DNA from: Blastocatellia bacterium
GTDB taxonomy: Bacteria > Acidobacteriota > Blastocatellia > UBA7656
Direction of reading: 5' to 3'
NCBI GenBank assembly: GCA_035649735.1
Contig: DASRIZ010000347.1
Coordinates: 1,321-65,320 of the forward strand
DNA length: 64,000 bases
Of the stretch, positions 1,271 through 63,398 are shown in pieces. The notes below the pieces were generated by a model that saw only the letters and a list, made by a program, of their open reading frames with translations, was not told the DNA's origin and made no database searches. The position numbers and the translations under genes are program-made. Position 1 is the stretch's first letter. Every line of letters begins with the position of its first letter.

Positions 1271-1397
1271 ATTTGGTTTCTGGTTTCTGGTTTTTAATTC
1301 CTGGTTTCTGGTTTCTGGTTTATGGTTTCTCGGTTCTGGTCCTACACTCGACCGCGTCCGAACTAGAAACTACGAACCAGCAACTAGAAACCAAGCT
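1271..1397. repeat. Heptamer-array hairpin: (TGGTTTC)n left arm and (GAAACYA)n right arm, filling the spacer between convergent genes
   Basis: Read directly. Left arm, nt 1274-1341: tggtttctggtttctggttttt..ctggtttctggtttctggtttatggtttctcggttctgg. Right arm, nt 1359-1395: gaactagaaactacgaaccagcaactagaaaccaa. Period is 7, and the arms are imperfect reverse complements. Confidence 0.8.
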
Positions 1398-4353: not shown

Positions 4354-4433
4354 TTGGAATATACCTCCGACCGCTTCATCGAAACTGGGTCATTATACCA
4401 ACTCAGAAACACGAGCACTATTACAGCGGCGTA

Positions 4434-4623
4434 GCGTAGACTGTCCAGTCTGCGCTCAGTCTTCAGCGCCGACGCAGCACGGAATGTAAGCGTAGACTGT
4501 CCAGTCTGCGCTCAGCCTTCAGCGCTAACGCAGCGCGGAATGTAAGCGTAGACTGTCCAGTCTGCGCTCAGTCTCCAGCGCCGACGCAGCACGCGTGTAG
4601 CGCAGACTGGACAGTCTACGCTA
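4434..4623. repeat. 56-bp tandem repeat x3 plus a terminal inverted copy of its 24-nt head; the core is the palindrome AGACTG-TC-CAGTCT
   Basis: Units start at 4434, 4490 and 4546 (gcgtagactgtccagtctgcgctcag + ~30 nt). Nt 4599-4622 (agcgcagactggacagtctacgct) is the exact reverse complement of 4545-4568. Confidence 0.9.
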
Positions 4624-7246: not shown

Positions 7247-7506
7247 ATGCTATCACTGGCGAAGAGCAGCTACGCAAACAGTAGTCGAGTTGTACGCATG
7301 GTGACCCAGTTTGGGGACGCCCGACGCAGTCGGTGCTCGACCGGATTCCGGTTCTCGAAAAGGAAATCGCCGACGCAAACTCAGCATTCGAATCGATCAT
7401 CGGGAAAGAGCTCGCAGTGGTGAATGCGAAGCTTGCAGCCAAGAAATTCGATCCCATAAAGGTTATGACCAGGGAAGAGTACGACAAGAAGCAGGAAACC
7501 AGGTAA
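7247..7506 (+). pseudogene. Frameshifted C-terminal remnant of a larger gene
   Basis: The frame from 7247 reads ..SSYANSSRVVRMVTQFGDA. The frame from 7321 continues PTQSVLDRIPVLEKEIADANSAFESIIGKELAVVNAKLAAKKFDPIKVMTREEYDKKQETR*. A 1-nt shift at ~7321 joins them, and there is no plausible N-terminus. Confidence 0.35.
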
Positions 7507-7612: not shown

Positions 7613-10594
7613 ATGCGACTCAAGAATCGAGCTGTGTTGTTCGTTTTGGTGCTTGCGCTCTCCGGCGCGTCGAGCCTTCCATTCAAAGCATCCGCTCAGA
7701 CCCAACAAGCGGCAACAGCCCAACGCCCAATCGAACTGGCCGATAGTCTGGCCTGGAAGCGCGTCGCATCGCCGAGCATCTCCAACGACGGGCAATGGTT
7801 CGCGCACAAGCTGACGCCGAACGAAGGAGACAGCGAGCTCGTCTTGCGCCGCATTGGCGACGGCAAGGAGTGGCGTTTCCCGGTCGGCGAAGCCCAGGAC
7901 GGCGGCGGCGGCCCGGCCTTTTTCGGCGGCGCCCGAGCGGCGGAGATCGCATTCTCGGATGATTCAAAATGGTTCGCCTTCACAATCTCGCCGACCTTCA
8001 AGGATGGCAAACGGCTGAAAAAAGAGCGGAAGCCACTGCAGAACAAAGTTGCGGTCATCAATCTGTCGACCGAAAAAAAGGTTGAATTCGAAAAGGTTAA
8101 ACGATTCGCTTTCTCAGGTGAGAACGCGTCCTGGATTGCCCTTCACAAGTACGGGGCTGAATCGCAGGGGCCGCCACCCGGCGCGCCGCCTGCATCAGCC
8201 TCGGGCGCTTCGACACCCGCGCCGGACAGGGCTACCGGCTCCGATCTGATACTGCGCGAGCTCGCCAGCGGTAATGAACTGAACGTAGGAAATGTTGCCG
8301 ACTATTCGTTTAACAAAAAAGGCGATTGGCTGGCCTGGACGATCGACGCCAACGAAAAGAGCGGCAACGGCGTGCAGGCGCGCAATATGGATTCGGGCGC
8401 GGTGCTCCCGCTCGACAGCGGCAAGGCCATCTACAGGGGTTTGAATTGGACCGAAAAGGGCGACGGTTTGGCGGCGGTCAAAGGCGTCGAAGATCGGGGC
8501 TACGAAGACAAGCTCTACGGCGTCGTGGCATTCAATGGTTTTGGCAATGCCGGCGGCCCAACAAAAGTTATCTACGATCCTCAAAAGGGCGAAGACAAAT
8601 CGTTCCCGTCAGGCATGACTGTTAGCCCTAATCGACCGCCGACGTGGACGGACGATTTCAGCGCTGTGCTCTTCGGCATTCACGAAGTTAAAAAGAAGAA
8701 GCCCGGGGCGCAGAGAGAAGCCCCCAAAGACGACGAGGCCAAACCTGACGTTGCCCAGATGAAGAAGCCGGAAGACGAGCCGGAGAAGCCGGATCTGGTC
8801 TTGTGGCATTGGCAGGACAAACGTCTGCAATCGCAGCAGCAGGTCGAAGAGAGCCGCGACAAGAACTTCAGTTACCTGTCCATCTATCGCGTGGCCGACA
8901 AGAAATTCATTCGTCTGGCCGATGAAGACCTGCGAAACGTAACTGCCGCGCCGAAACAGAAATTTGCCATCGGCTCCGACAACCGCGATTACGAGCCTTT
9001 GGGCAATCTGGACGGGCGGCGTTATCAGGACATCTACGTCGTTGACTTGAAGACTGGCGCGCGCAAGCTGGCGGTCAAAAAGAATCGCTGGAGCTCCGGC
9101 GCCTCGCCCGACGGAACGCACTTTGTGTATTACGACGAGGGCCACTTCTTCACCTACGACATGGCCACGGGCAAATCCTACAACGTGACCGAGAAAGTTC
9201 CCTCGGTCTTCTGGGATCAGGAAGACGACCACAACGTCGTTAAGCCGCCGACAAATGTTGTCGGCTGGACAAAAGACGGCGTGTCGGTGCTGCTGTCGGA
9301 CAACTGGGACATCTGGAACGTCCCAGTTCATGGCGGCCAGGCGGTGAACCTGACCGTCAACGGCAAAAAGGATCGTATCCGTTATCAGAACCGCTTCCGC
9401 ATTGATCCTGATGAGAAGGGGATTGATCTCGGCTCGCCGGTCTATGTTCGGGTTTACGGCGAATGGACTAAGAAGATGGGCATCGCGCGCATTGACGGCG
9501 GCAAGCCGGGCGCGAAGATGCTGCAATGGGACGACGCCGGATTCGGCGGCGTGATGAAAGCCCGTAAGGCGGATGTCTGGCTCTACTCACGCGAGACCTA
9601 TCAGGACGCTCCGAGCTACTATGTGGCAGATGCCGCGCTCGCCAACGGGAAAAAGATTACGGATGCCAACCCGCAGCAGAAAGATTTCCTCTGGTCATCC
9701 GGTTCCAAACTGATCGAATACACCTCGGCCAAAGGCGATAAGCTGCAAGGCGCGCTCTTTCTTCCCGCAAACTATCAACCGGGCAGGAGCTATCCGACCA
9801 TTGTCTACATCTATGAAAAACTCTCTCAGGGCTTGAACAGTTACGCCATTCCGACGACCAACGGCTTTAACAAATCCGTGTATACCAGCAACGGCTATGC
9901 GGTGTTGATGCCGGACATCGTTTACAAGGTCAACGATCCGGGGATGTCTGCAGTCTGGTGCGTGCTGCCCGCGCTTGAAGCGGCAATCAAAACCGGCGTG
10001 GTGGACAAGGACCGCGTCGGCATTCAGGGTCATTCGTGGGGCGGGTATCAGACTTCGTTTCTGGTCACCCAGACCGATGCATTCAAGGCCGCGATTGCCG
10101 GCGCGCCGCTAACCGAGATGATCTCGATGTACTACTCGATCTACTGGAATTCCGGCGGCGGCAACATGGCCATTTTTGAAAGCAGCCAGGGTCGTTTTAC
10201 CGGCAGCCCGATAGACGTAACCGATGCCTATGTTCGGAACTCGCCGATCTCGCACGCGAAGAACGTCAAGACTCCGCTGGTCATCCTGCACAACGACAAG
10301 GACGGCGCGGTGGACTTCACGCAGGGGATCTTTTATTACAACACGCTGCGGCGCTTGCAGAAGCCCGTGGTGATGCTGCAATACAAAGGCGAAAACCATG
10401 GCTTGAGAGTGCCTGCAAATATGAAGGACTACACTGTGCGAATGCGTGAGTTTTTCGATCACCACCTGAAGGGTAAGCCGGCGCCAAAATGGTGGACAGA
10501 AGGCGTACCGCTCCTTAAGTTGAAAGAGCACCTGGAGGAGCGCGCGCCCGGGAAGCCGCCGACGATTGATCCGCTGAACAACGACAACAGGTAG
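7613..10594 (+). CDS. Secreted S9 family serine peptidase (prolyl oligopeptidase/DPP-like) with a long N-terminal propeller region
   Basis: 993 aa. AGGAGG RBS and a signal peptide. Nucleophile motif GHSWGGYQT, followed by HNDKDGAVD and ENHGL (Asp/His). Confidence 0.9.
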   Translation: MRLKNRAVLFVLVLALSGASSLPFKASAQTQQAATAQRPIELADSLAWKRVASPSISNDGQWFAHKLTPNEGDSELVLRRIGDGKEWRFPVGEAQDGGGGPAFFGGARAAEIAFSDDSKWFAFTISPTFKDGKRLKKERKPLQNKVAVINLSTEKKVEFEKVKRFAFSGENASWIALHKYGAESQGPPPGAPPASASGASTPAPDRATGSDLILRELASGNELNVGNVADYSFNKKGDWLAWTIDANEKSGNGVQARNMDSGAVLPLDSGKAIYRGLNWTEKGDGLAAVKGVEDRGYEDKLYGVVAFNGFGNAGGPTKVIYDPQKGEDKSFPSGMTVSPNRPPTWTDDFSAVLFGIHEVKKKKPGAQREAPKDDEAKPDVAQMKKPEDEPEKPDLVLWHWQDKRLQSQQQVEESRDKNFSYLSIYRVADKKFIRLADEDLRNVTAAPKQKFAIGSDNRDYEPLGNLDGRRYQDIYVVDLKTGARKLAVKKNRWSSGASPDGTHFVYYDEGHFFTYDMATGKSYNVTEKVPSVFWDQEDDHNVVKPPTNVVGWTKDGVSVLLSDNWDIWNVPVHGGQAVNLTVNGKKDRIRYQNRFRIDPDEKGIDLGSPVYVRVYGEWTKKMGIARIDGGKPGAKMLQWDDAGFGGVMKARKADVWLYSRETYQDAPSYYVADAALANGKKITDANPQQKDFLWSSGSKLIEYTSAKGDKLQGALFLPANYQPGRSYPTIVYIYEKLSQGLNSYAIPTTNGFNKSVYTSNGYAVLMPDIVYKVNDPGMSAVWCVLPALEAAIKTGVVDKDRVGIQGHSWGGYQTSFLVTQTDAFKAAIAGAPLTEMISMYYSIYWNSGGGNMAIFESSQGRFTGSPIDVTDAYVRNSPISHAKNVKTPLVILHNDKDGAVDFTQGIFYYNTLRRLQKPVVMLQYKGENHGLRVPANMKDYTVRMREFFDHHLKGKPAPKWWTEGVPLLKLKEHLEERAPGKPPTIDPLNNDNR

Positions 10595-10688
10595 GAAAAG
10601 AAGAAGGCAGAAGGCGGAAGGCAGAGGGCAGTTCGTGTAAGCTGCTTTCTGCCTTCTGCTTTCTGCCTTCTGGCTTCTGTCTTCCGCC
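10595..10688. repeat. Heptamer-array hairpin, (GAAGGCA)n / (TGCCTTC)n family
   Basis: aagaaggcagaaggcggaaggcagagggcag - ttcgtgtaagc - tgctttctgccttctgctttctgccttctggcttctgtcttccgcc. It starts 1 nt after the peptidase stop. Confidence 0.85.
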
Positions 10689-10746
10689 GATGTGACCCTA
10701 TTAGGCGCTGTGGCCGGAACTGGCCGGTCTCGGTTAGACTGATTCT

Positions 10747-14206: not shown

Positions 14207-14407
14207 TGCGCGCCCTTTTTTGGAGTGCGCCGCCCTCTTCCGCAATGAGTGACTCTCGCATGCGTGGCGGCGCTTTGGCCTCTTGAACTTTGCCAACGAG
14301 CGGTGTTGTCCGGCGTCTCCGACCAATGCTGCAAAAGCGCCGCCACGCATGCGTTAGTCACGCAATGCGAAAAGGGCGGCGCATTCCAAATAGGGCGTGC
14401 ACTAACC
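14201..14407. repeat. Long imperfect inverted repeat (~77-nt arms, ~52-nt spacer) bridging two convergent stop codons; each arm contains GCGCCGCC...GGCGGCGC
   Basis: The reverse complement of 14330-14407 aligns base-for-base with 14201-14277, with a handful of mismatches or indels (ggttagtgcRcgccct..tgcgccgccct..cgcatgcgtggcggcgcttt). Confidence 0.8.
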
Positions 14408-16334: not shown

Positions 16335-17033
16335 ATGACAGACGGAAACGCGATCAAGGTGTCCGCACTACTCTTCGGACAGGCTCGAGAATGGGTTGGT
16401 TCTTCAAACGTGGATCTCACCCTCGAAGCCCCGGCAACAGTTCAAGACGCTTTCGCAATACTAAAATCAATGCATCCGCGGCTCGCCGAAATGGAGCGTA
16501 GCCTGTTGTTTGCGGTAAACGAGGAATACGCCTCGCATTCGCATCCCCTATCGGATGGCGACCGTCTTGCAGTTCTTCCTCCGGTGAGCGGCGGAGAAAC
16601 AAACAACCGCGACATCTTTGAGATAACCCGCGAACCGATCGACATTGCAGACCTGCGAGCACGCCTGCTCGAGGGAGACTCAGGCGCGGTGGTCATATTT
16701 GATGGAGTCGCCCGCAACAATACTAAAGGCCGGCCGACGCAATATCTTGAATACGAGGGCTACGAGCCAATGTCACTCCGGACGATGGAACAGATCGGAC
16801 GCGAGATACACGAGCGCTGGGCGATCAATCGGGTCGGGATCATCCATCGCCTGGGCCGGATCGATACGACTGAATCAAGCGTTGTCATTGTTGTAACGTC
16901 GGCTCATCGCAAGATCGCATTCGAAGCCTGTCACTACGCCATCGATCGCCTAAAGAAGATCGTGCCGATTTGGAAGAAGGAGTTCTTCGAAGACGGCGCG
17001 GTGTGGGTAGAGAATGAAGAGGCGCGGAGATAG
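16335..17033 (+). CDS. Fused molybdopterin synthase MoaD-MoaE (MoaX-like)
   Basis: Residues 1-87 form a MoaD/ThiS beta-grasp ending PPVSGG (GG codons at 16590-16595). The rest is MoaE (LEYEGY, HRLGRI, SAHRKIAFEAC, PIWKKE). Confidence 0.85.
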   Translation: MTDGNAIKVSALLFGQAREWVGSSNVDLTLEAPATVQDAFAILKSMHPRLAEMERSLLFAVNEEYASHSHPLSDGDRLAVLPPVSGGETNNRDIFEITREPIDIADLRARLLEGDSGAVVIFDGVARNNTKGRPTQYLEYEGYEPMSLRTMEQIGREIHERWAINRVGIIHRLGRIDTTESSVVIVVTSAHRKIAFEACHYAIDRLKKIVPIWKKEFFEDGAVWVENEEARR

Positions 17034-30852: not shown

Positions 30853-31638
30853 ATGAAGCTGAGCATCCTCCTCACAATCATTCTTACAGTGACCACCCAG
30901 GCGCAAATCGGGGTGTCGAGTACCACGCAAGAGTCATCTCCGCCTGGTGCCACAACGCAGGACAGGTCGAAAGTTGATGAGATCGCGCGCATGCTGGAGC
31001 GCGTCAAGAGTCGCTCGACCGCTGAGCGTCGCGAGGCGATCGATCAACTCGCCGAGGCCGGTGACCTGCGCGCGGTGGAACCGGTTATCGCCGCGCTTAA
31101 GGACCAGGAGGGGGACGTTCGGGCTTCGGCGGCGAACGCGCTCGGCCAACTCGGAGACAAGCGGGCAGTCGAACCGCTGATCCTAATGCTCAACGACGAG
31201 GTGTCATTCGTGCGCGCGGCGGCGGCAAGGGTACTGGGGCAGCTTGGCGACGCAAAATCAGTCGACCCGCTGACTACATCGCTGAAAGACGGGAACTCGA
31301 CGGTTCGAGGGGCCGCGGCGATGGGTCTCGGATCTTTGAAGGAAGTGAGAGCGGTGCCGGCATTGATTTCGGCGTTGAGAGACGAAGCGCCAGACGTCCG
31401 GTCGGCAGTCGCCGCGGCACTGGGCGATCTGCGTGACAAACGAGCGATCGATCCGCTAATTCACTCGTTGAAGGACGAGTACCGGATGGTCAAGCTTGCG
31501 GCCGCGTTGGCTCTCGCGGACATCGGCGACAAGCGCGCGGTGGCGGCGCTTAGCGAGGCCCTGGCGAGTGAGAAAGATGAGGAAACACGGTCGCAAATGA
31601 AGGAAGCGCTCCAGAGGCTGATGGCCGTGCCTGAGTGA
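30853..31638 (+). CDS. Secreted HEAT-repeat (PBS-lyase type) protein
   Basis: 261 aa. Signal peptide, then ~7 repeats of ..VRxxAAxALGxLGDxRAVxPLIxxLxD.. Confidence 0.8.
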
Positions 31639-31765
<127 letters not shown>

Positions 31766-31772
31766 TGCAAGA

Positions 31773-32044: not shown

Positions 32045-32059
32045 AATAGAGCCCAGATA

Positions 32060-32206
32060 CCAAAGGCAGAAGGCAGAAACCAGAAGGCAGAAGGCAGTCA
32101 CCAGTCCTTCTGCCTTCTGCCTTCTGCCTTCTGCCTTCTGCCTTCTGCCTTCTGCCTTCTGCCTTCTGCCGTCTGCCGCTGCCTTCTGCCCGCTGCCTTC
32201 TGCCAG
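32060..32206. repeat. Heptamer-array hairpin, (CAGAAGG)~5 / (CCTTCTG)~14, strongly asymmetric
   Basis: The left arm is 32066-32094. The right arm has 9 perfect consecutive CCTTCTG units from 32106 to 32168, then ~5 degenerate units up to 32202. Confidence 0.9.
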
Positions 32207-36357: not shown

Positions 36358-37380
36358 ATGGCGGTCAAGTTCAAGGACTACTATGAGGTGCTTGGCGTCA
36401 AGAGGGACGCCAACGACGAGCAGATTCGCCAGGCGTATCGGAAGCTCGCCCGCAAACATCATCCGGATGTGAATCCCGGCGACAAGATTGCCGAAGACAA
36501 ATTCAAAGAGATCAACGAGGCCAACGAAGTACTCTCCGATCCCGAGAAGCGCAAACGCTACGATCAGCTCGGACCCAATTGGAAGAACGGAGCGGAGTTC
36601 ACGCCGCCGCCGGGCTGGGGACGAGTCAATGTGCAGTTCGACGATCTTGGCAGCATGTTTAGCGGGGGCGGTTTCAGCGATTTCTTCGAGACGCTTTTTG
36701 GTGGAGGAAAGACTTCGGGCCCAACCGATCAGCGGCGCCGAGGTACGCGCTCCCGAAGCGGTCGCGGTCAGGATGCGGAAGCCGAAATGGAGATCTCGCT
36801 TGAAGACGCACACGGCGGAGGACGGCACAGGATAACGCTCCAGGGAACCCGGACTTGTTCGGCTTGTGGAGGAAAAGGAACGACTTCGGGCGGAGTAGTT
36901 TGCACAGTATGCAGAGGGGCAGGCCAGGTTCTGCATCCAAAGACGATCGACGTCAACATACCTCCCGCCGCGCGCGAAGGCTCGGTGATTAAGGTAAGCA
37001 AGCACGGCCAGGGCGGAACAAGCGATCCTGGAGACCTCTTTATAAAGCTCAAGATAAAGCCTCACCCGATCTTCACCGTGTCAGGTGACGATATCACCGC
37101 CGAGGTGCCGATCTCCGCCTCAGAGGCGGTCTTGGGATCAACGATCGAGGTACCTACGATCGACGGCAAGGCCGAGGTGAAGATACCTGCCGGATCTCAG
37201 GGGGGGCAGCGATTGCGGCTGCGAGGCCAGGGTTTGAACAAACGCGGCGGCGGACGCGGAGATCAGTACGTGAGATTGAAGGTGGTGGTGCCGACTCATC
37301 CGACCGATCGAGAAAAAGAGCTCTATCGCGAACTGAGCGGGGCAGGCCATTTTAATCCGCGGGCCGGGTTTGAAAAGTGA
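36358..37380 (+). CDS. J-domain co-chaperone (DnaJ/CbpA-like)
   Basis: 340 aa. DYYEVLGV...KLARKHHPDVNP (HPD), a G/F region, a reduced Zn finger (CSACGGKG...CTVCRGAG), and DnaJ C-terminal domains. Confidence 0.87.
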   Translation: MAVKFKDYYEVLGVKRDANDEQIRQAYRKLARKHHPDVNPGDKIAEDKFKEINEANEVLSDPEKRKRYDQLGPNWKNGAEFTPPPGWGRVNVQFDDLGSMFSGGGFSDFFETLFGGGKTSGPTDQRRRGTRSRSGRGQDAEAEMEISLEDAHGGGRHRITLQGTRTCSACGGKGTTSGGVVCTVCRGAGQVLHPKTIDVNIPPAAREGSVIKVSKHGQGGTSDPGDLFIKLKIKPHPIFTVSGDDITAEVPISASEAVLGSTIEVPTIDGKAEVKIPAGSQGGQRLRLRGQGLNKRGGGRGDQYVRLKVVVPTHPTDREKELYRELSGAGHFNPRAGFEK

Positions 37381-37411
37381 TACGTGATGCGTGATACGTG
37401 ATGCGTATTGG
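37377..37411. repeat. One-armed heptamer array (GTGATAC/GTGATGC) x4-5 overlapping the J-protein stop codon
   Basis: gtgatac gtgatgc gtgatac gtgatgc gtattgg. It fills most of the 45-nt spacer before the clpB ATG. Confidence 0.8.
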
Positions 37412-40056: not shown

Positions 40057-40099
40057 CAGAATATAGGTCCAATAGGTCCAATAGGTCCTATATTGGTTG
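40057..40099. repeat. ATAGGTCC-triplet element (direct orientation), immediately after the clpB stop
   Basis: cagaatataggtccaataggtccaataggtcctatattggttg. Confidence 0.8.
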
Positions 40100-40486: not shown

Positions 40487-40560
40487 CGCATTCACAAGGC
40501 GCAGCGCGGTACTATCATCCGGACCTGGCATGTACAAGCAAGGTGACAAGGAGGAAGGGT

Positions 40561-41697
40561 ATGATTTCGCACGAAGACTTAAGCCAGCTACACAGCTACT
40601 CATCTGGCCCTGAGTCACTCATTCTGAGCCTTTACGTGAACATAGATCAATCGGATGCCGCGAACCTCAACCGCGGGTTTGAAACCAGAGTCGAAAGCCT
40701 GTTCCGGCAGGCTGCGGAGAATCACAACTCCCACGAGGGAAGCCGGGAGAGATTTGACGCGGAGTGCCAGCGAGTTCGCGATTTTTTACGAGAGTATGTA
40801 CCGAAGGGTAAAGCTCTGGTGCTGTTCAGCGACTCAAAGCGGGATTTCTGGTGGCAACGCGATCTGCAGGTTGAATTGCCAACCGGCGTGCGCTGGTCGC
40901 CGGAGCTGTGGGTGCGGCCCTTGCTCGAAGTCATTGAAGAACACGATCGCTTCGCCGTCGTGTTGATTGATAAACACCACGCTCGCGTCCTGACTTTCGA
41001 TGCCGGCGGATTGGAACAGCAAACCGAAATCGTCTCTGATGTGCCTAATAAACACGCAACCACTGGAACAGATCACATCTGGTCTCAGGGACAGATGGAT
41101 CGCGATCATTTAAATCATGTTCAGTCCCACGCCAGGCGAGTGACGGATGAGCTGACGACGGTGATCGAGCGGATGAAGCTAAAAAGGATAGTCATTGGAG
41201 GACCGGTGGAAGCGACTTCCGTTTTTACCAGCGGGCTTCCGAAGCGTCTACAGCAGATGATTATCGGAACGATTTCCGCCCCGGTAGATGCCAATCGCGA
41301 CCGGATAATCGCCGAGATGAGGTCGGTGCAGGCAAATACCGAGCACGAAGACGAAACTAAGATGGTCGATTCTATGATCACTGCTGCAATGAAAGGCGAC
41401 CGCGCGGTGATTGGAGTCTCAGACACGCTGGGCGCGATCCAGGAAGGCCGGGTCTACCGTCTGGTGGTTGCGCGGGATTTCCGAGCCGAGGGTAAGGAGT
41501 GCGTGGCCTGTCACGTGCTGGTTGCGGACGGAATGGAAAACTGCCCGTTCTGCGCGGGTAAGCTGGAAGCGGCGCCTGATCTGGTTAACCGAGCATCACA
41601 CCGGGTGCTCGACATGGGCGGCACGATTCAACACGTCTCCGGCGAAGCCGCCACGCGGCTTGCGCAAGCGGGGATTGGCGCGGTGTTGAGATTTTGA
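40561..41697 (+). CDS. eRF1/Pelota/Vms1-like (bacterial aeRF1-type) protein with a zinc-ribbon insert
   Basis: Start at the ATG at 40561 after [21 protein letters not shown] opening, central [20 protein letters not shown] loop, and a C-terminal domain-3-like segment [25 protein letters not shown]...CVAC..CPFC...AGIGAVLRF. Confidence 0.65.
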
Positions 41698-41710: not shown

Positions 41711-41753
41711 CAGAATATAGGTCCTATAGGTCATATAGGTCCTATATTCAGAC
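41711..41753. repeat. ATAGGTCC-triplet element (direct orientation), after the eRF1-like gene
   Basis: cagaatataggtcctataggtcatataggtcctatattcagac. It has the same first 14 nt and the same terminal ataggtcctatatt as the copy at 40057. Confidence 0.8.
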
Positions 41754-47115: not shown

Positions 47116-47158
47116 GAGAGGTCGTCACTCGGGCACAGTGGCGACCTCCAATTTTTTT
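47116..47158 (+). terminator. Rho-independent terminator (orphan, in a long ORF-free spacer)
   Basis: Stem 47118-47129 (gaggtcgtcact) pairs with 47137-47148 (agtggcgacctc). The loop is 7 nt, followed by caa + T7. Confidence 0.6.
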
Positions 47159-49438: not shown

Positions 49439-49486
49439 AATAGGTCCTTTAGAAATATAGGTCCGATCGGTCATATAGGTCCTATT
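49439..49486. repeat. ATAGGTCC-family element
   Basis: aataggtcctttagaaatataggtccgatcggtcatataggtcctatt. It ends 3 nt before the esterase stop. Confidence 0.75.
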
Positions 49487-52718: not shown

Positions 52719-54920
52719 CTAATCCTTCACAACTGAAAAATCTATTAAGTGACGGACTTGATCAACGCGGTTCACCGATACCCACACTCGATCGCCAAGC
52801 CGATACTCGCGTCGCGTGCGTTGACCTACCAGCCGATGCTTACGCTCCTGAAAAACGTAAACATCATCGGTAAGAACCGATACATGTACCAACCCTTCGA
52901 TAAAGAACTCGTCCAGCTCGACGTAAAACCCGTACTCCTTGACTCCGGTGATGACGCCGCCGAATTCATCGCCAACGCGATCGACCATGAACGATGCCTT
53001 GCGCCAATCCATCAGTTCGCGTTCGGCATCGGCGGCGGCACGCTCTCGCTCGCTGGATTGATCGCCGATCGCCTCGAACCCGGCGCGAAGCTGGGTTTCG
53101 CGCTCTTCATCGAGCACCGGCAGCGATACGCGTTTCAATGCATGCCTGGCCCCAAAATCGACGTCATTCCAGGAGCCCTTACCCGCCCGCTCGATGACTT
53201 CGCGGAGCACTCGATGAACGATCAAGTCAGGATACCGGCGAATTGGCGAAGTGAAATGGGTGTATGTCTTCATCGCCAGCCCAAAATGTCCTTCATTGTG
53301 GGGCGTGTAGCGCGCGCGTTGCATTGACCGCAGCATCAGGTACGAGAGCATGCGCTCTTCGGGCTTTCCTTGAATCTCGCCCGCGAGCTGCTGAAAGCCA
53401 CGCTGGGGAATGGGACCGTGCATCGAGAACTTATGCCCAAACGACGCGGCGATCTCGGCGAACTCCGCGATCTTCTCCGGGTTCGGCTCTTCGTGAATTC
53501 GGTAGAGCAACGGAACGTCAAGGGATTCAAGATGACCAGCCACCGTTTCGTTTGCCAGCAGCATGAATTCTTCGATCAATCGATGGGCTATGTTGCGCTC
53601 CGACCGCGCGATGCCGCCGATCTGGCCCTCATCGTTGAACCACAATTCGGCCTCGGGCAAATCGAAGTCTATCGCTCCGCGTTTCTCTCTTGCCTTGATC
53701 AGCAAAAGCGTCAGCTCATGCATCTCGAGAATCATGTCTTTGACGTGCGCGTATCTAACCGCTGTCTCACCTTCAGGATTGGTGATGATCTCGTTGACCG
53801 CGGTGTAAGTCATTCGCTCACGGCTATGAATTACTGAAGGAGTCAGCCGATAGTCAACGACCCGTCCGTTTCGGTTAAGCTCAATAAGCGCCGACATCGT
53901 AAGGCGGTCGACTTGGGGCTTGAGAGAGCATATGTCATTGGACAACCGCTCGGGCAGCATCGGGATCGCCCGCTCAGGAAAGTAGACCGAGGTGCCACGC
54001 TCCAACGCCTCTTCGTCGAGAGGGCTTCCTTCGCGTACGTAATAGCTCACATCGGCAATGTGCACGCCCAGAAGAAGTCTTCCGTTTGGTAGCTCCTCCA
54101 GACAGACGGCATCGTCAAAATCGCGAGCGGTCTCGCCGTCGATGGTAATGGTCAGCCGCTCTCGCAGGTCTTCTCTTCCCGCAAGTTGTCCGTCCGTGAT
54201 CTCGGCGGGGATGGCTTCGGCCTGGGCAAGCACGGCTTCCGGAAAAATGTGTGAAAGACGATGTTTTCTGATGATGATTTCCAGATCGATGCCGGGCTGT
54301 TCGGGCCGTCCGAGAATCTCGATTACTCGACCCCACGGGCGCTGTCCGGCGATTGGAGGCCTGTTGATCTCTACGTTGACGATGTCCCCGTCATTCGCGC
54401 CCCCTGAATCCGCTGTAGGTATGCTGATCTCGTACAGAAGTCGTTCCTCGATTGGAGTGACAAAGGTCTCGGATTTGAGGCGTACAAATGTTCCAATGAT
54501 CGTTCGATTTGCGCGATGCAACACAGCTTCGACGCGGCCCTCGCGCCCACGTTCGCGCGCGCCGGTCACCCGAGCGATCACAATGTCTTCGTGCAAACCG
54601 GCGCCCATCGCGCGAGCGTTAACAAAGAGGTCTCCCCTCTCACGCTCGCTGGGGTCCTCCGGCACAACAAACGCGTGACCCGAACGAGTGCCCCTAAGCG
54701 TACCGATCAGAAACCCGGGAGCGTGTTTACGCCAGTAGCGTCCCCCTTTAGCGGCTGCGAGCCCGGCACGAACAAACTCTTTCAGGAATGCTTCAGCCTT
54801 CTCCCTTTGTGATTCAGAAAGGTGTAGGGCTTCGGCGAGGCGATCTGCGGTGATAGCTCGCTCTCGAGACTTTGGGAGCACTTGAAGAAGTTTTTGCGGC
54901 GATAAGCCTGTTGTGACCAT
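52719..54920 (-). CDS. rnr: Ribonuclease R
   Basis: 733 aa. N-terminal HTH/cold-shock-like region, RNB catalytic domain (DFDDAV, HFTSPIRRYPDL), and a C-terminal S1 domain (GVITGVKEYGFYVELDE). Confidence 0.93.
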   Translation of the reverse strand: MVTTGLSPQKLLQVLPKSRERAITADRLAEALHLSESQREKAEAFLKEFVRAGLAAAKGGRYWRKHAPGFLIGTLRGTRSGHAFVVPEDPSERERGDLFVNARAMGAGLHEDIVIARVTGARERGREGRVEAVLHRANRTIIGTFVRLKSETFVTPIEERLLYEISIPTADSGGANDGDIVNVEINRPPIAGQRPWGRVIEILGRPEQPGIDLEIIIRKHRLSHIFPEAVLAQAEAIPAEITDGQLAGREDLRERLTITIDGETARDFDDAVCLEELPNGRLLLGVHIADVSYYVREGSPLDEEALERGTSVYFPERAIPMLPERLSNDICSLKPQVDRLTMSALIELNRNGRVVDYRLTPSVIHSRERMTYTAVNEIITNPEGETAVRYAHVKDMILEMHELTLLLIKAREKRGAIDFDLPEAELWFNDEGQIGGIARSERNIAHRLIEEFMLLANETVAGHLESLDVPLLYRIHEEPNPEKIAEFAEIAASFGHKFSMHGPIPQRGFQQLAGEIQGKPEERMLSYLMLRSMQRARYTPHNEGHFGLAMKTYTHFTSPIRRYPDLIVHRVLREVIERAGKGSWNDVDFGARHALKRVSLPVLDEERETQLRAGFEAIGDQSSERERAAADAERELMDWRKASFMVDRVGDEFGGVITGVKEYGFYVELDEFFIEGLVHVSVLTDDVYVFQERKHRLVGQRTRREYRLGDRVWVSVNRVDQVRHLIDFSVVKD

Positions 54921-54933
54921 TTCGATCTTGAAT

Positions 54934-55018
54934 GTGCGATTTGCGATCTAGATATGTGAATCTAGGCTTCTTGCTCGCCAATCTCAATCGAAAATCGGCA
55001 ATCGCCAATCGGAAATTC
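54934..55018. repeat. GAAATCG-family heptamer array with a short inverted partner, in the divergent rnr / tRNA spacer
   Basis: gtgcgatttgcgatctagat...gccaatc tcaatcg aaaatcg gcaatcg ccaatcg gaaattc. The period-7 units span 54976-55017. Confidence 0.7.
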
Positions 55019-55019
55019 A

Positions 55020-55049
55020 TTGACACTGTTTGCGAGCGCTCGTTACTAT
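55020..55049 (+). promoter_or_regulatory. Putative sigma-70-type promoter for tRNA-Leu (TTGACA-N18-TACTAT)
   Basis: TTGACA at 55020-55025 and TACTAT at 55044-55049, ~35 nt upstream of the tRNA 5' end. Confidence 0.3.
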
Positions 55050-55083: not shown

Positions 55084-55169
55084 GCGGATGTGGCGGAATG
55101 GCAGACGCGCAGCGCTCAGGACGCTGTGGGAGCAATCCTGTGGAGGTTCAAGTCCTCTCATCCGCACCA
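55084..55169 (+). tRNA. tRNA-Leu (anticodon CAG), type II with a long variable arm; CCA is encoded
   Basis: Acceptor GCGGATG/CATCCGC. Anticodon stem CAGCG/CGCTG with loop CTCAGGA. Variable arm TGGGAGCAATCCTGTG, T-arm GAGGTTCAAGTCCTC, and a terminal ACCA. Confidence 0.93.
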
Positions 55170-56797: not shown

Positions 56798-59278
56798 ATG
56801 AAGCGAGTCAGGTTGTTATCCGCCGGTAAGGCTGCCGCTCTTGCACTGTTTATCGCCATCGCGGTCGCGCTGGTGGTGTACCTCTTCTTTCGAACAAGGC
56901 ACGCCCAACCGGAACAGACCCGACCGAAGCTTCAAGGAAAAGTTGTCGCGGTCTTCACCAACACTCATTATTCCCACGAAGTCAGCGGCCAGGTGCGGTT
57001 CAACATCACGGCGGGAACCGACAGAACTTACGAGGATGGCACTCACGAGCTTGAGCAGGTCAAGCTTGAATCCTACGGCTCGGCCGGCGAACGGCACGAC
57101 GTCGTAACCTGCGATCGCGCGAAGGTGAGCGATCCCGCCGATCTCAGTAAACTCGATGCGGAATTCATCTCAAATGTCGTCGTGCAAACCTCGGACGGGC
57201 TAACTCTCAAAACCAGTTACTTGCACTATGATCAAACGAAAAACACCGTCGATACGAAGGAGCCTGTCGAGTTCGAAGGCCGCAATTATTCCGGGAAGGC
57301 CACAGGCATGGTCATCGAGGCCGCGACCGAGCGAGCGAGTCTGCTGAATGACGTCGACGTAACCATAAAACCTGAAAGCGAAGCTGACCGGGACAAGAGA
57401 GCTCGCGGCGCCACGGAAAGCGCCCAGCAGCGCGAAGAAACACCTGAGCAGAGAAATGCGCGGCGGGCTCGCAAACTAGCGCGCAAAGAAAAACGCAGAC
57501 GCGCCGCTGAACTGGCTCAGGTGGAACCAGAAGGCAGAAGGCAGAAGGCAGAAGGCAGAAGGCAACGGGCAGAGGTCAATGGTCAGAGGTCAGAAGTCAG
57601 AGGTCAGATGCAACCGGCGGTGAACAAGCCGACAAGAATAAGAAGCGAGTCTGCCCTACTCGAAAAAAAGGAGCATCGAGTGACCTTTGACGGCAACGCG
57701 GTCGTGACGCAGGGGGCTGATGAGTTCCGCGCGGCGCGAATGGTCAGCTTCGCGGACGCTTCCAATCATATCGAGCGCATCGAGGCGCGCGGCGGCGCCT
57801 ATCTGAAACAATCGGACAAAGCGGAGATCAAATCTCCCGATATGGATTTCTTCTTCGCCGAGTCACACCAACTCGCGCGGGCGGTAGCGATGGGAGGCGC
57901 CTCGACGCGTTCGCTGGGACCCGAACCGATCAGAGAAGCTAGAGCCGACACGATCGAAGCAACCTTTGTTCAAGGCCCGCAGGCAAATGTTGTCGACGCG
58001 ATCACCGCTCACGGAAGCGCCGCATTGAAGATTCACGCACCTCCTCCGGCTAGCAACTCCGATAACCCCACCGCGCGCGAGCTTGCCGCCGACACGGTGA
58101 CGATGCAGTTCTTTCCGGATGGAAAAAACATCAAGCACGCTGAAGCAGCCGGTAAAGCAGTTATGACTATTACGCCGGTTCGAGCCGAACAACGCGCCGA
58201 CAAAAAGACAATTCACGCTCCCAGAATGGACGCCCTGTTTTTTGAAGAAGCCAACCGAGTAAAGACGTTTAGCGCCACCGATGGCGTGAGGGTTGAAATC
58301 GAAGCGACGATTCCGGACGATCACCCGTCGCGAGTAACGACCAGCAAATCGGCGCGCGCGGAGTTTCTAAAGGACTCGCAGGATATTGACCGCCTGTCGC
58401 AGGAAGGCAACTTCAAGTACGTCGAGGGCGAGCAAAATGCTCTTGCAGAAAGCGCGGTTTACGACGGCCAGAAAGAGATTCTCAATCTAAGAGGCAAGCG
58501 TCCGATGGCATGGGATGCGAAATCGCGAACCCAAGCCGATGAGATCGATTACGACCGCCGCCATGATGAGAGCCATGCGAGAGGCGATGTTCGCACCACT
58601 TACTACAGCCGCGAAACAACCAACGATTCGACGCCGTTCAAAAACGCCAAATCGCCGGTGTTCATAACTGCCGAACGCGCCGATGCCCAGAACAAGGCCG
58701 GCATCGCGATCTATACGATCAATGCCCGCGGCTGGCAAGACGATAACTTTATCAAGGCTGACAGAATCGAGCTCTATCAGGATGACAAGCGCATGGTCGC
58801 AATCGGCAATGTGGAGAGCGCTCTCTATCAGGCAAAACAAGAGACATCGCCTGGAAAGCGGGAGGTCGTTCCGGGTTTTGCGACAGCCGACAGGATGAGC
58901 TACTCGGACACAGAGCGAAAGATCCGTTATGAAGGCGGCGTGAAGTCCCGGCAAGGCACCGACCGCCTCGAAGCATCATCCGTCGATGTGTTTCTGATGC
59001 AGGAAACAAACGAGGTCGATCACCTGAACGCCGACGGCAACGTCGTGCTTACGCAACCGGGACGCCGGGGCGTCGGTGACAAGCTTGCGTACACGTCCGA
59101 AGATGGCCGCGCAGTTTTGACTGGAAAATCTGCCCGTGTAGACGACGTCGAGAAAGGGGCGACCATGGGCTCTCAATTGACGTTCTATAGTCGCGATGAT
59201 AGGATTTCGGTCGAGAATCAGCAGGGTACGGGCCGTGTCCGATCGACTCATCGTTTGACAAAGAGCAGACAGAATTGA
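56798..59278 (+). CDS. Fused LptC-like / multi-module LptA(OstA)-like LPS-transport protein
   Basis: 826 aa. N-terminal TM anchor and an LptC-like beta-jellyroll (aa ~40-200). A K/R/E-rich linker encoded partly by a heptamer array. Then repeated OstA-type segments (VTFDGNAVVTQGADEF.A, VAIGNVES, LNADGNVVLTQPG..GVGDKLAY). It lies directly upstream of lptB. Confidence 0.7.
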   Translation: MKRVRLLSAGKAAALALFIAIAVALVVYLFFRTRHAQPEQTRPKLQGKVVAVFTNTHYSHEVSGQVRFNITAGTDRTYEDGTHELEQVKLESYGSAGERHDVVTCDRAKVSDPADLSKLDAEFISNVVVQTSDGLTLKTSYLHYDQTKNTVDTKEPVEFEGRNYSGKATGMVIEAATERASLLNDVDVTIKPESEADRDKRARGATESAQQREETPEQRNARRARKLARKEKRRRAAELAQVEPEGRRQKAEGRRQRAEVNGQRSEVRGQMQPAVNKPTRIRSESALLEKKEHRVTFDGNAVVTQGADEFRAARMVSFADASNHIERIEARGGAYLKQSDKAEIKSPDMDFFFAESHQLARAVAMGGASTRSLGPEPIREARADTIEATFVQGPQANVVDAITAHGSAALKIHAPPPASNSDNPTARELAADTVTMQFFPDGKNIKHAEAAGKAVMTITPVRAEQRADKKTIHAPRMDALFFEEANRVKTFSATDGVRVEIEATIPDDHPSRVTTSKSARAEFLKDSQDIDRLSQEGNFKYVEGEQNALAESAVYDGQKEILNLRGKRPMAWDAKSRTQADEIDYDRRHDESHARGDVRTTYYSRETTNDSTPFKNAKSPVFITAERADAQNKAGIAIYTINARGWQDDNFIKADRIELYQDDKRMVAIGNVESALYQAKQETSPGKREVVPGFATADRMSYSDTERKIRYEGGVKSRQGTDRLEASSVDVFLMQETNEVDHLNADGNVVLTQPGRRGVGDKLAYTSEDGRAVLTGKSARVDDVEKGATMGSQLTFYSRDDRISVENQQGTGRVRSTHRLTKSRQN
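57528..57611. repeat. 12-unit heptamer array (CAGAAGG x5, then CAACGGG/CAGAGGT-type units) in frame inside the lptC-lptA ORF
   Basis: 12 x 7 = 84 nt = 28 codons, encoding [27 protein letters not shown]. The unit is the same as in the intergenic GAAGGCA hairpins, but only one arm is present. Confidence 0.9.
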
Positions 59279-60085: not shown

Positions 60086-60176
60086 TCATTTCTCATTGGT
60101 CATTAGTCATCGGTCATCAAAGGCAACTTTGGAAAACATTGACCAATGACAAATGACCAATGACAAATGACCAATA
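60085..60176. repeat. Heptamer-array hairpin (GTCATTK)n / (AATGACM)n between lptB and rpoN
   Basis: gtcattt ctcattg gtcatta gtcatcg gtcatca - aaggcaactttggaaaac - attgacc aatgaca aatgacc aatgaca aatgacc aat. It ends 4 nt before the rpoN ATG. Confidence 0.9.
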
Positions 60177-60180
60177 AGTT

Positions 60181-61755: not shown

Positions 61756-61850
61756 CTTGAATCTGTCCGATCGACGGTTCGGATTCTTAAATGACTCTCA
61801 AATCAACTTTCGCCTATCCCCCCGCAATCCAAGAAACGGAGAATAGATAG

Positions 61851-62384: not shown

Positions 62385-62487
62385 AAAGACGGAAGGCAGA
62401 AGGCAGAAGGCAGCCTTCACAATCCGACTGGCTTCTGCTTCCTGCCTTCTGCTCTCTGCCTTCTGCTTTCTGCCTTCTGCCTTCTGG
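62385..62487. repeat. Heptamer-array hairpin, (GAAGGCA)n / (TGCCTTC)n family, between hpf and rapZ
   Basis: aaagacggaaggcagaaggcagaaggcag - ccttcacaatccgactgg - cttctgcttcctgccttctgctctctgccttctgctttctgccttctgccttctgg. It starts at the base after the hpf stop. Confidence 0.9.
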
Positions 62488-62492
62488 TCTTT

Positions 62493-63371: not shown

Positions 63372-63398
63372 GGCCTATAGGTCCTATCGGTCCTAGAT
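63367..63398. repeat. ATAGGTCC-family element between rapZ and the EIIA gene
   Basis: atatagggcctataggtcctatcggtcctaga. It overlaps the rapZ stop codon. Confidence 0.7.

Follow-up and report, generated by a model that had tools for sequence, protein, structure and literature searches.

To our knowledge, bacterial tandem heptamer repeats have been on record since 1990, and in 2007 they were shown to be in excess; neither a function nor a reason for the number seven has been accepted. The STRR sequences of heterocyst-forming cyanobacteria, which Mazel et al. reportedly described in 1990, comprise several 7-nt tandem units in the non-coding DNA of a single genome. As summarised in two later papers, Mrazek, Guo and Shah (2007, PNAS) found long simple sequence repeats with units of 5-11 nt, among which heptanucleotides are the commonest, located the arrays mostly in non-coding DNA and proposed polymerase slippage with a 7-nt contact length as their source (PMC4679880, PMC4692102). 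In Xanthomonas, 70-75 convergent inverted pairs of GGGAATC arrays per genome have been reported (Rehm et al., 2015, PLoS One; PMC4692102); about 90% of them are intergenic, at a mean distance of 28 nt from the upstream ORF and 160 nt from the downstream one, and they are scarce between divergent genes. Direct repeats of the heptamer TAACTGA occur in Beggiatoaceae, Cyanobacteria and Bacteroidetes (MacGregor, 2015; PMC4679880). Among stem-loops of other make-up, REP and SRPS elements stabilise upstream cistrons (PMC4423207, PMC8219983). Our literature search returned nothing linking heptamer repeats to Acidobacteria or Blastocatellia. An initial sequence-only reading of the DNA studied here knew of no description of inverted heptamer arrays; the GGGAATC pairs are such a description. 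Heptamer repeats and inverted pairs are thus already published, and what is new here is the lineage and the variety of units (at least 74).

The window, a stretch of 64,000 nt from a contig (DASRIZ010000347.1) of a soil bacterium of the class Blastocatellia, contains 22 arrays of period 7, four of period 14 and one of period 21. No period-7 array was obtained in 30 dinucleotide-preserving shuffles. Most arrays are inverted pairs that give stems of 30-45 bp when folded (Table 1); for ten of the hairpins the folding energy lies between -32 and -84 kcal/mol and the z-score between -2.8 and -10.9, which bears out the long hairpins proposed by the sequence-only reading. The five or more types of 7-nt unit listed by the sequence-only reading were each recovered where it had placed them or close by. 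Besides the GAAGGCA loci and the arms given in Table 1, the repeat search delimited GTCATTK at 60085-60175, CGATTTS at 54934-55016 and 63818-63955, GTGATRC at 37377-37406 and the weak 8-nt array at 26323-26355. Its statement that the layout is always inverted was too general, as the array at 37377 has a single arm, the two at 57528-57608 are direct and lie within an ORF, and those at 54912-55020 and 26323 are weak. Arrays of GAAGGCA type occupy six loci (10602-10688, 17032-17262, 31638-31764, 32063-32204, 57528-57564 and 62392-62486), and the loop sequences of the six GAAGGCA hairpins are unrelated to one another. A scan against Rfam 15 placed no family on the hairpins, its sole match at gathering score being a tRNA at 55084-55166. 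An exact-protein look-up of the SDR protein encoded at 488-1270 returned no record.

Table 1. Heptamer arrays and related elements of the window, with their minimum free energies where folded.
Feature	Position	Strand	Fold (kcal/mol)	z	Arms and flanks
Inverted heptamer arrays	1271-1397		-47.8	-4.9	TGGTTTC x9.6 arm 1274-1340, degenerate GAAACCA arm 1359-1394; whole 127-nt convergent spacer between SDR stop (1268-1270) and ABC ATPase stop (1398-1400), flanks by Pfam
GAAGGCA / TGCCTTC hairpin	10598-10692	+	-62.3	-8.4	Stem about 32 bp; begins 7 nt past S9 peptidase stop (10592-10594); thioredoxin gene downstream
Nested hairpin	17024-17270		-117.2	-10.4	Convergent spacer, moaD/E and TPR genes; GAAGGCA outer arms 17032-17084 and 17228-17262; ATTTGAC-type inner arms (GTCATTK family) 17104-17122 and 17193-17219; both stop codons paired at stem base (GAGATAG / CTATCTC)
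Composite nested palindrome	18051-18270	-	-33.7 (inner hairpin)	-4.9	Downstream of gyrA stop (18268); outer G-rich 8/16-nt arrays; inner AATTGAA / TTGCAAT arms 18126-18163 and 18191-18226; conserved 25-nt loop
Composite palindrome, second copy	25260-25478	-	-54.4 (inner hairpin)	-10.9	From inositol-monophosphatase stop (25480) to GHMP-kinase start (25246); heptamer arms 25321-25360 and 25383-25421, 95% complementary
Weak 8-nt CTTTGCGT array	26323-26358	-			Co-directional spacer, no significant structure on folding; score 34; class membership marginal
AGGCAGT x10 / ACTGCCT x5.6 hairpin	31636-31766	+	-80.3	-8.0	Starts within TGA stop of HEAT-repeat gene (31636-31638); rpsU downstream
AAGGCAG x5 / CCTTCTG x14 hairpin	32054-32206		-84	-7.9	Convergent spacer, rpsU and aldo-keto reductase (stop at 32218)
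Single-arm GTGATRC x4.3 array	37377-37411	+			Overlaps dnaJ-like stop (37378-37380); followed by GGAGGGA Shine-Dalgarno sequence and clpB start (37426)
Weak CGATTTG / CAATCGR inverted arrays	54912-55020		-32.2	-2.8	RNase R start on one side, tRNA gene (55084-55166) on the other
Two direct arrays, CAGAAGG x5.3 and CAGAGGT x5.6	57528-57608	+			Inside 826-aa LptC-LptA fusion ORF; translated, 26 residues in inter-domain linker
GTCATTK / AATGACM hairpin	60083-60178	+	-43.5	-10.5	Fills lptB-rpoN spacer; stem from G of lptB TAG (60085) to 9 nt before rpoN ATG (60181)
GAAGGCA x3 / CTGCCTT x8.4 hairpin	62388-62490	+	-50.3	-5.6	Fills hpf-rapZ spacer; stem base 3 nt past hpf stop and 3 nt short of rapZ ATG (62493)
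GATTTCC / AAATCGG hairpin	63815-63958	+	-48.9	-3.5	Directly 3' of EIIA-Man stop (63812-63814); rare C-left (opposite) polarity

An artefact of assembly or sequencing has next to no probability as the source of the arrays. Short-read contigs do often break within GAAGGCA arrays, and in one contig (L110) the nested hairpin is missing its inner part; against this, the arrays are found at identical sites in more than ten independent samples and assemblers (ENA, JGI, Logan). Of 80 assemblies of relatives, all independent, 62 have such arrays, among them Mb-scale contigs and a 9.5-Mb chromosome, and so do about twelve independent contigs of the window's own species from soil metagenomes. One clade (L044-L048) is free of arrays. 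The 80 related loci (1.24 Mb), all from one genomic neighbourhood, contain 276 arrays of period 7. Save for period 14, a doubling of seven with 47 arrays, each other non-triplet period yields at most 18, and period 7 stands more than 15-fold above them, the enrichment that had been expected from the window. By gene calls that are crude, being the longest ORFs, 216 of 303 arrays are intergenic, although intergenic DNA makes up 12% of the sequence. Of the 78 intragenic arrays, 48 fall in the first decile of these ORF calls; they are start-codon artefacts of over-extended calls, and only the cases in the LptC-LptA linker look real. Heptamer arrays are a class-wide trait of Blastocatellia genomes, and they are long simple-sequence repeats of the STRR/LSSR kind, with a tandem 7-nt excess, copy number that changes by whole units and a mainly non-coding location.

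Contigs from independent samples, 98-100% identical to the window, carry nearly all of their indels inside arrays, in steps of 7 or 21 nt. Within the nested hairpin at 17024-17270 they lie at 17058 (21 nt), 17110 and 17197 (7 nt each); the hairpin at 31636-31766 has insertions of 21 nt (at 31638) and 7 nt (at 31734) in other strains, and the one at 62388-62490 has lost one 7-nt unit at 62392 in three independent samples. Such indels within the arrays of near-identical strains demonstrate whole-unit slippage, in the 7-nt register that had been proposed; the additional idea of a dedicated mechanism beyond ordinary slippage found no support.

The complete dataset comprises 146 inverted pairs, with a median stem of 34 bp and a mean minimum free energy of -50 kcal/mol, each typically formed by about 4-5 units per arm around a loop of some 30 nt. 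Hairpins are located at a median of 2 nt past the stop codon, close to stops as the sequence-only reading had it, and 9 nt ahead of the next start. Of 32 hairpins with 40 nt or more of spare spacer, 27 adjoin the stop. Occupancy is 18% for co-directional spacers, 9% for convergent and 5% for divergent (promoter) ones, and many hairpins sit inside operons. The window has six convergent spacers that measure 35 nt or more, and every one is strongly structured, three by heptamer arrays and three by unique palindromes, as against just one of eight divergent spacers; heptamer hairpins share this niche with ordinary 3' hairpins. We hold the origin by whole-unit slippage and the anatomy of inverted, stop-anchored pairs with high confidence. 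The proposal that the hairpins are canonical terminators had to be abandoned because no T-run follows them: the 10 nt on their 3' side contain 3.1 T on average and no T-tract. A scan for canonical hairpin-plus-T terminators gave sites at chance level, none of them on heptamer hairpins, and these do not have the short GC-rich stem, 3-8 nt loop and U-tract that define an intrinsic (Rho-independent) terminator.

It may be that slippage is all there is. This alternative, which we consider unlikely although it deserves serious weight, sees the arrays as a by-product of mutation that serves no positive function. They would be created and resized by slippage that intrinsically prefers 7 nt, inverted partners would both arise and be homogenised through intra-strand template switching (quasi-palindrome correction), and selection would be purely negative, directed against arrays in coding sequence, promoters or ribosome-binding sites, or with the C-rich arm first. 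Since deletion bias would trim the remaining spacer, arrays would end up abutting stop and start codons, and the observed stop-codon anchoring could indeed also come from such trimming of free spacer DNA around a self-renewing array. The whole-unit indels among near-identical strains favour this reading, as do the heptamer excess in unrelated phyla, ascribed to polymerase slippage in the summarised account of Mrazek et al. (PMC4679880, PMC4692102), and the failure to assign a function to the Xanthomonas repeats (PMC4692102). It is at odds with the distribution of arm lengths, which does not decay and has its mode at 4-5 units, with the convergent spacers of the window, all structured whether by arrays or otherwise, and with the rpoN-operon spacers, 34-69% of which are occupied as compared with 18% of co-directional spacers overall.

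The spacers lptB-rpoN, rpoN-hpf and hpf-rapZ carry hairpins of this kind in many relatives, built from differing units; for hpf-rapZ, orthologous hairpins are present in 35 of 51. In orthologous spacers the architecture is kept while the unit sequence is replaced, both arms changing together. When 57 two-array orthologous spacers were compared without pre-selection for complementarity, the arms were reverse complements within one mismatch in 47, and the mean distance was 0.93 from arm to arm versus 2.68 for the same arm between genomes. Unit variants are only weakly mirrored between arms (mean z 0.33 in a mirror-order test with units permuted within the arm), which indicates that whole-arm copying is not the main process; arms that co-evolve with their variant order unmirrored run contrary to the template copying invoked for a by-product. 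On the other hand, about half of the relatives' orthologous spacers lacking arrays are short and unstructured, and the window itself has lost the rpoN-hpf hairpin (z +0.8). Each hairpin is therefore individually dispensable, as a by-product would be.

Altogether 74 distinct units were found. They are shared in 14% of comparisons within a locus versus 6% between loci, and in 19% between orthologous spacers of different genomes versus 6% between different spacers of one genome; sharing mostly between orthologous spacers suggests that the units descend vertically. It is difficult to reconcile this with small mobile elements (MITE-like or REP/RAYT-like) inserted in spacers, an origin that we consider highly improbable. 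Six loci with GAAGGCA arrays in one window, the greater sharing of units within a locus and the two composite palindromes (18040-18290 and 25240-25500), which share a conserved loop and about 82% overall identity, are what such elements might leave behind. Nevertheless, the GAAGGCA loops are unrelated, flanking direct repeats do not exceed the control and reveal no target-site duplication, and the 40 window ORFs scanned against Pfam include neither a transposase nor a RAYT. The loop of the composite element has one further exact match in metagenomes, so that it does not represent a widespread family. A MITE assignment likewise fails on the missing target-site duplication, the unrelated loops and the vertical inheritance, only the composite element being present in two copies.

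The arms have a marked polarity, with the G-rich arm leading (5') in 126 pairs and trailing (3') in 15, whichever strand is read; the bias persists outside the rpoN-operon spacers (84 vs 15, p = 8e-13). Of the single arrays adjoining a stop codon, 10 have more G than C on the sense strand and 2 have less. Such polarity requires a constraint sensitive to strand order, which a by-product does not readily provide. Rotation-EM alignment of the units yielded a weak shared pattern, YCAKNNG, with 3.84 bits versus 2.8-3.5 in controls. That the units are unrelated was hence too strong a statement, as they are inherited per spacer, follow a G-5'/C-3' polarity and share this weak pattern; that they vary by locus holds. 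Variability within units is flat across positions (6-12%), so that no imprint of a reader is visible.

These data bear on a possible role of the arrays as landing pads for a protein that binds single-stranded nucleic acid with a footprint near 7 nt, for example a cold-shock-domain protein or ribosomal protein S1. The protein would coat the emerging G/U-rich 5' arm and gate the hairpin, making it an attenuator or anti-terminator switch. A cold-shock domain covers about 7 nt, equal to the array period, which we treat as a lead only. We judge landing pads improbable: that the G/T-rich arm is mostly transcribed first and that the units have a weak common pattern would suit them, as would the proposal of S1, Csp or CsrA for TAACTGA arrays (MacGregor, 2015; PMC4679880), whereas the 74 distinct units, the weakness of their common pattern, the absence of position-specific conservation within units and the lack of any candidate protein linked to the arrays speak against them. 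For a by-product, the flat variability is as expected.

In minimum-free-energy folds, G-U pairs number 204 for the sense strand and 298 for the antisense strand, and mean energies are -50.1 and -51.8 kcal/mol, respectively. The sense strand thus has no G-U excess, contrary to what selection on the sense RNA predicts, although as a test of such selection the comparison is at most mildly negative; the result agrees with a by-product, and G-U pairs no commoner on the sense than on the antisense strand are also what pairing as DNA predicts. Cruciforms or hairpins might act at the DNA level, pausing replication forks or, like BIMEs, binding gyrase or nucleoid proteins, and long perfect inverted repeats do exist in the dataset. 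Loops of about 30 nt, however, disfavour cruciform extrusion, and a DNA-level role gives no reason for anchoring 0-5 nt from the stop or for the avoidance of divergent spacers. We regard such a role as very improbable.

Our preferred reading is that hairpins built by slippage act on the transcript in the manner of REP elements or intercistronic stabilisers. Taken as a whole, this explanation seems to us evenly poised between right and wrong, and the functional part by itself, a REP- or SRPS-like action that we infer, is put forward a shade more tentatively. For the explanation as a whole we count the enrichment, the whole-unit indels, the stable folds, the position next to stops, the co-evolving arms and the polarity; the dispensability of single hairpins, the missing G-U excess and the weak mirroring of unit variants weigh against it. 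Transcribed together with the upstream gene, the spacer would form a hairpin of about 30-35 bp lacking a U-tract, which may be the analogue of a REP element or SRPS-type intercistronic stem-loop and block 3'-to-5' exonucleases. It would probably also be a processing site for a double-strand RNase and thereby mark the upstream cistron's 3' end. A stem bridging stop and start would loop out the insertion and leave both codons about 10 nt apart in space, and by this proximity translational coupling could survive. For independent initiation, stems of -50 kcal/mol ending 3-9 nt ahead of a start codon should be a hindrance and not a help. Selection would then target pairing, polarity and position, with no single hairpin being essential.

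A bolder version is unlikely in our opinion, namely that the hairpins are a selected, self-renewing operon punctuation common to Blastocatellia and Xanthomonas with a strand-order-sensitive reader. Slippage would supply an evolvable stem, and the reader, for which the candidates are the terminating ribosome, Rho loading and a single-strand binder that covers 7 nt, would enforce the G-5'/C-3' polarity and the length of 4-5 units. The hairpin would fix the position of mRNA 3' ends and decide whether adjacent cistrons are coupled or uncoupled. If correct, operon punctuation would also account for period 7 prevailing over all other periods.

Whichever reading applies, the lineage constitutes a natural experiment with hundreds of hairpins, dozens of units and orthologous spacers. 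Unit turnover, co-evolving arms, fixed polarity and a preferred length cannot be accounted for by G-quadruplexes, the explanation pursued in Xanthomonas, and the properties of the heptamer hairpins lead to concrete testable predictions. There are practical consequences as well: short-read assemblies of abundant soil Acidobacteriota break at the arrays, and ORF calls come out inflated where they run through an array.

With respect to the known repeat systems, cyanobacterial STRR belong to another lineage, and most are direct arrays, inverted pairs being few in Nostoc. The arm consensus at 60140-60175, TGACCAA, reads as STRR2 (TTGGTCA) on the opposite strand, which we take to be coincidence; STRR1-3 are ruled out here, the host being, by the relatives of its RpoN, a member of the Blastocatellia (Acidobacteriota) with 74 other units. 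The long simple sequence repeats of Mrazek et al. (2007), a study that predates the availability of Blastocatellia genomes, are direct arrays, and the description of them summarised in later papers includes no inverted pairing, stop anchoring or polarity (PMC4679880, PMC4692102). TAACTGA arrays (PMC4679880) resemble ours in being intergenic and packed against coding-sequence boundaries, and a post-transcriptional role has been proposed for them too, but they have one unit, occur as 169 direct sets versus one inverted and lie just upstream of starts. REP/BIME and SRPS elements (PMC12306157, PMC4423207, PMC8219983) are, like the hairpins described here, 3' UTR or intercistronic hairpins without a U-tract, and their proposed role in upstream mRNA protection and operon stoichiometry is the one that we infer. 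REPs, however, form a family whose members measure about 35 nt, follow a single consensus throughout the genome and are spread by RAYT transposases (PMC12306157, PMC4423207, PMC8219983), whereas the Blastocatellia hairpins have tandem-unit stems two to three times longer and no consensus. Units and loops that vary between loci set them apart from a REP/BIME defined by a single 35-nt or so consensus.

The Xanthomonas pairs (PMC4692102) share with ours the 7-nt unit, the inverted G-rich-toward-G-rich order, the capacity to form stem-loops and the polarity, and in both systems sister species share occupied spacers with variation in length and sequence, the mode in Xanthomonas being about 4 units. 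The arrangement reported by Rehm et al. (2015) is found here in 146 pairs, 126 of them with the G-rich arm on the left, at a median of 2 nt past the stop and with divergent spacers (5%) avoided relative to co-directional ones (18%). By unit, the arrays do not belong to the G-rich class of that study, defined by the unit GGGAATC or GGGGAYT and at least four G-tracts with G-quadruplex potential: a GGG tract is present in 9 of the 74 units and in none of the window's hairpin-forming array units, for which reason the G-quadruplex explanation is inapplicable here. Xanthomonas and Nostoc, members of other phyla, have a single unit family (GGGAATC / GGGGAYT; PMC4692102) as opposed to at least 74 units in this lineage, in which, unlike in Xanthomonas, unit turnover with co-evolving arms and unit indels at the population level are documented.

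Tandem Repeats Finder (TRF) detected 22 period-7, 4 period-14 and 1 period-21 arrays in the window after overlapping rows had been merged, and no period-7 array in 30 dinucleotide-preserving shuffles of it. The repeat loci named in the sequence-only reading, the TGGTTTC locus as well as all others, were recovered by TRF, which confirms the observation. Folding against controls, which that reading had asked for, gave -32 to -84 kcal/mol for ten RNA hairpins (z -2.8 to -10.9), and the nested hairpin behaved likewise (see table). The inverted layout had been said to hold always; it does not, since one array is single-armed and two direct arrays lie within an ORF. LptC and LptA are fused as a single ORF, a fusion kept in relatives, and their inter-domain linker contains heptamer arrays that translate into 7-aa repeats; in the locus of one relative, L025, another unit (AAACTCA x13, 7318-7410) stands at the matching relative position of this ORF.

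Features of the window and whole-unit length variants of same-species contigs (positions in nucleotides)
Position	Feature	Detail
1271-1397	TGGTTTC x9.6, loop, degenerate GAAACCA arm	occupies entire 127-nt gap of two convergent genes
4433-4622	56-nt unit x3.4, inverted copy at end	divergent spacer; fold -153 kcal/mol, z -11
14238-14372	unique non-repeat palindrome, 42-nt arms 86% complementary	convergent spacer, -141 kcal/mol, z -14.6
17024-17270	nested hairpin; base = paired stop codons of both convergent genes	-117 kcal/mol, z -10.4
17058	deletion	21 nt
17110	insertion	7 nt
17197	deletion	7 nt
18040-18290, 25240-25500	two paralogous nested palindromes	outer G-rich 8/16-nt arrays, inner AATTGMA heptamer arms
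26323-26358	weak array	
27432-27463, 40063-40092, 41716-41746, 49455-49485, 63367-63395	9-nt class	
31638	insertion	21 nt
31734	insertion	7 nt
37377-37411	single-armed array	
40543-41697	bacterial archaeo-eukaryotic release-factor family 10 (baeRF) protein	between clpB and clpP
47118-47148	canonical hairpin-plus-T-run terminator	
54912-55020	weak array	
55020-55049	good sigma-70-like site	TTGACA, 18 nt, TACTAT
55084-55166	tRNA gene	
56798-59278	LptC-LptA fusion	826 aa
57528-57608	two direct arrays	within ORF
60181-61755	RpoN	
61755-61851	rpoN-hpf spacer	
62392	GAAGGCA deletion	7 nt; three independent samples
63367	deletion within nonamer array	9 nt; several strains at least 99.5% identical to window

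With RpoN as query, 80 public-genome loci were obtained, nearly all from MAGs of Blastocatellia (Acidobacteriota subdivision 4), at 54-93% identity. Across their 1.24 Mb, TRF found 276 period-7, 47 period-14 and 13 period-21 arrays, 48 and 39 arrays of periods 12 and 15 (coding triplet multiples), and at most 18 of each remaining non-triplet period, counts that come from one shared genomic neighbourhood and are not independent; the excess of period 7, which the sequence-only reading had set as a test, is present. The density of period-7 arrays per 10 kb is 2.75 where RpoN is at least 73% identical, 1.73 where it is 54-61% identical, and 0 in loci L044-L048. Arrays are found in short-read MAGs, Mb-scale contigs and one 9.5-Mb chromosome, and about 30 same-species contigs (98-100% identical), found by exact-protein look-ups and coming from independent soil samples, carry the same arrays; this recurrence excludes an assembly artefact. 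Same-species short-read contigs often stop inside GAAGGCA arrays (seven contigs, with ends mapping to 62400-62413, 17063 and 31706 of the window), so the repeats fragment assemblies. One contig, L110, lacks the inner part (17085-17253) of the nested hairpin, either as a real variant or through fold-back collapse.

When these contigs were aligned to the window, whole-unit indels (see table) were accompanied by just a few others, of 1-2 nt, and gain or loss of whole units is therefore the dominant length mutation. Whole-unit indels inside arrays between near-identical contigs show slippage in a 7-nt register, as had been proposed; Mrazek et al. (2007), summarised in PMC4679880 and PMC4692102, put forward the same hypothesis.

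In most close relatives, a heptamer-array hairpin makes up the lptB-rpoN spacer, beginning at the stop codon and ending shortly before the ATG; its unit varies by lineage (GTCATTT, GTTATTT, CAGTTTT, GGCAAAA, GTCCTTT, CAGGAGT, GTCCGTA, CAGTTGC and GGTGGCC). Units also differ between lineages in the hpf-rapZ spacer (arrays in 35 of 51 loci) and the rpoN-hpf spacer (23 of 67), and the 12-nt lptCA-lptB spacer never holds an array in the relatives' loci compared. Arms are reverse-complementary within one mismatch in 47 of 57 two-array orthologous spacers, complementarity not having been pre-selected. As the mean distance is 0.93 from arm to arm and 2.68 for the same arm between genomes, both arms co-evolve. 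With one mismatch allowed, the unit is shared by 19% of orthologous spacers of different genomes, 6% of different spacers of the same genome, 4% of different spacers of different genomes and 1.9% of random heptamers, a pattern that indicates turnover during vertical inheritance, not transposition. The rpoN-hpf spacer of the window is unstructured and contains only the remnants GGATTC and CCGCAATCC; GATTGCG/CGCAATC hairpins occupy this spacer in many relatives (eight loci compared), and the window's spacer is an example of array decay.

The anatomy of the pairs was surveyed in 1.30 Mb (the window plus the 80 loci), using arrays scoring at least 30 and pairing within 250 nt. With TRF thresholds that overlook degenerate arms, 292 of 507 period-7 arrays pair up, giving 146 inverted pairs with 74 distinct units; a degenerate complementary partner lies near 36-48 of the 87 solid "single" arrays, against 1-7 in the control. 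The loop has a median of 30 nt and the hairpin a median of 95 nt and 34 bp, MFE averages -50 kcal/mol, and arms are balanced (median 4.4 units each, peak at 4-5 units). Co-directional, convergent and divergent spacers contain 104, 19 and 6 pairs, spacer occupancy being 18, 9 and 5%, respectively. With genes called heuristically as longest ORFs, and those calls compared with public ones only around rpoN, moaE and the HEAT gene, the hairpin starts a median of 2 nt past the upstream stop, close behind it as had been noted, and ends 9 nt short of the next start; of the 32 hairpins with at least 40 nt of slack, 27 adjoin the stop.

Polarity is a feature absent from the sequence-only reading. The left arm has more G than C in 126 of 146 pairs and the opposite in 15; by distinct unit the split is 53 to 10, and outside the rpoN operon spacers 84 to 15 (p = 8e-13). 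Reverse complementation leaves polarity unchanged, the G-rich arm coming first and the C-rich arm second on either strand, and stop-abutting single arrays have sense-strand G>C in 10 cases versus 2. Because nearest-neighbour thermodynamics is symmetric, the polarity suggests a process in which order matters, e.g., co-transcriptional folding; one possibility is that a C-rich, G-poor arm would be free RNA for Rho if transcribed first, and paired immediately if transcribed second.

In a second repeat class, a self-complementary 9-nt unit, ATAGGNCCN, occurs three times in tandem (18 pattern matches versus 0.36 expected); most copies directly follow stop codons and form modest hairpins. The two paralogous palindromes have a near-identical 25-nt loop, GGCGAGCGCCTANCGGTYCGACAAA, whose exact pattern has one further match only in the metagenome collection. 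Upstream of rpoN in locus L017, the palindrome GTAGC-TAGACT...AGTCTA-GCTAC is related to the 56-nt repeat. The baeRF gene adjoins a 115-aa ORF without Pfam match, and the sigma-70-like site directly follows a weak heptamer array (54985-55016), about 35 nt upstream of the tRNA gene.

In the window, each of the six convergent spacers of 35 nt or more is strongly structured (z -3.3 or below), three by heptamer arrays and three by unique palindromes, as is one of eight such divergent spacers; canonical terminators number one in window spacers. With convergent spacers all structured and canonical terminators scarce, heptamer hairpins fill the niche of gene-3′-end hairpins; as the 42-nt-arm palindrome demonstrates, this genome also has long 3′ hairpins that contain no heptamer arrays. 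The heptamer hairpins are not intrinsic terminators, having no U-tract: no T-run was found 3′ of the hairpins (mean 3.1 T per 10 nt), and a consensus terminator scan gave sites at chance level, none on heptamer hairpins. By analogy with REP- and SRPS-type stem-loops (PMC4423207, PMC8219983), the hairpins most likely work on the transcript, where they would block 3′ exonucleases, probably be substrates of double-strand RNases, and mark the end of the upstream cistron. The hpf-rapZ stem base stands 3 nt from both the stop and the start codon; a stem spanning stop to start would loop the insertion out and keep both codons near each other, so that translational coupling could persist. Substantial evidence stands against such a transcript role. 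A sense-strand G-U excess is absent from the hairpin folds, which counts against it, as does the dispensability of the hairpin: roughly half of the orthologous spacers free of arrays lack structure, and the window's own rpoN-hpf spacer has decayed. The main rival, that the arrays are a neutral, self-renewing by-product shaped by purifying selection alone, we consider possible, if rather unlikely.

The arrays satisfy the definition of heptanucleotide long SSRs. They do not belong to the cyanobacterial STRR, from which lineage and units set them apart, to REP/BIME, for want of a consensus, to MITEs, target-site duplication being absent, or to Rfam families, and our literature search found no link of such heptamer repeats to Acidobacteria. 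Among described systems, the GGGAATC repeat of Xanthomonas comes closest, with heptamer units, about 90% of repeats intergenic, 70-75 convergent inverted pairs per genome, nearness to the upstream ORF (mean 28 nt), rarity between divergently oriented genes, occupation of the same spacers, at varying length, in sister species, and a mode of four units (PMC4692102); the pairs called "convergent" by Rehm et al. have the same polarity (PMC4692102). Novelty, as claimed from the sequence alone, cannot be upheld, inverted heptamer pairs having been described there, and what is seen here is not new in kind. The Xanthomonas study centred on G-quadruplex formation and did not find a function (PMC4692102). 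Here, GGG occurs in just 9 of 74 units, which rules quadruplexes out as the shared basis. Multi-unit, polarity-fixed and orthologously retained hairpins turn the question of why heptamers, and what for, into testable predictions.
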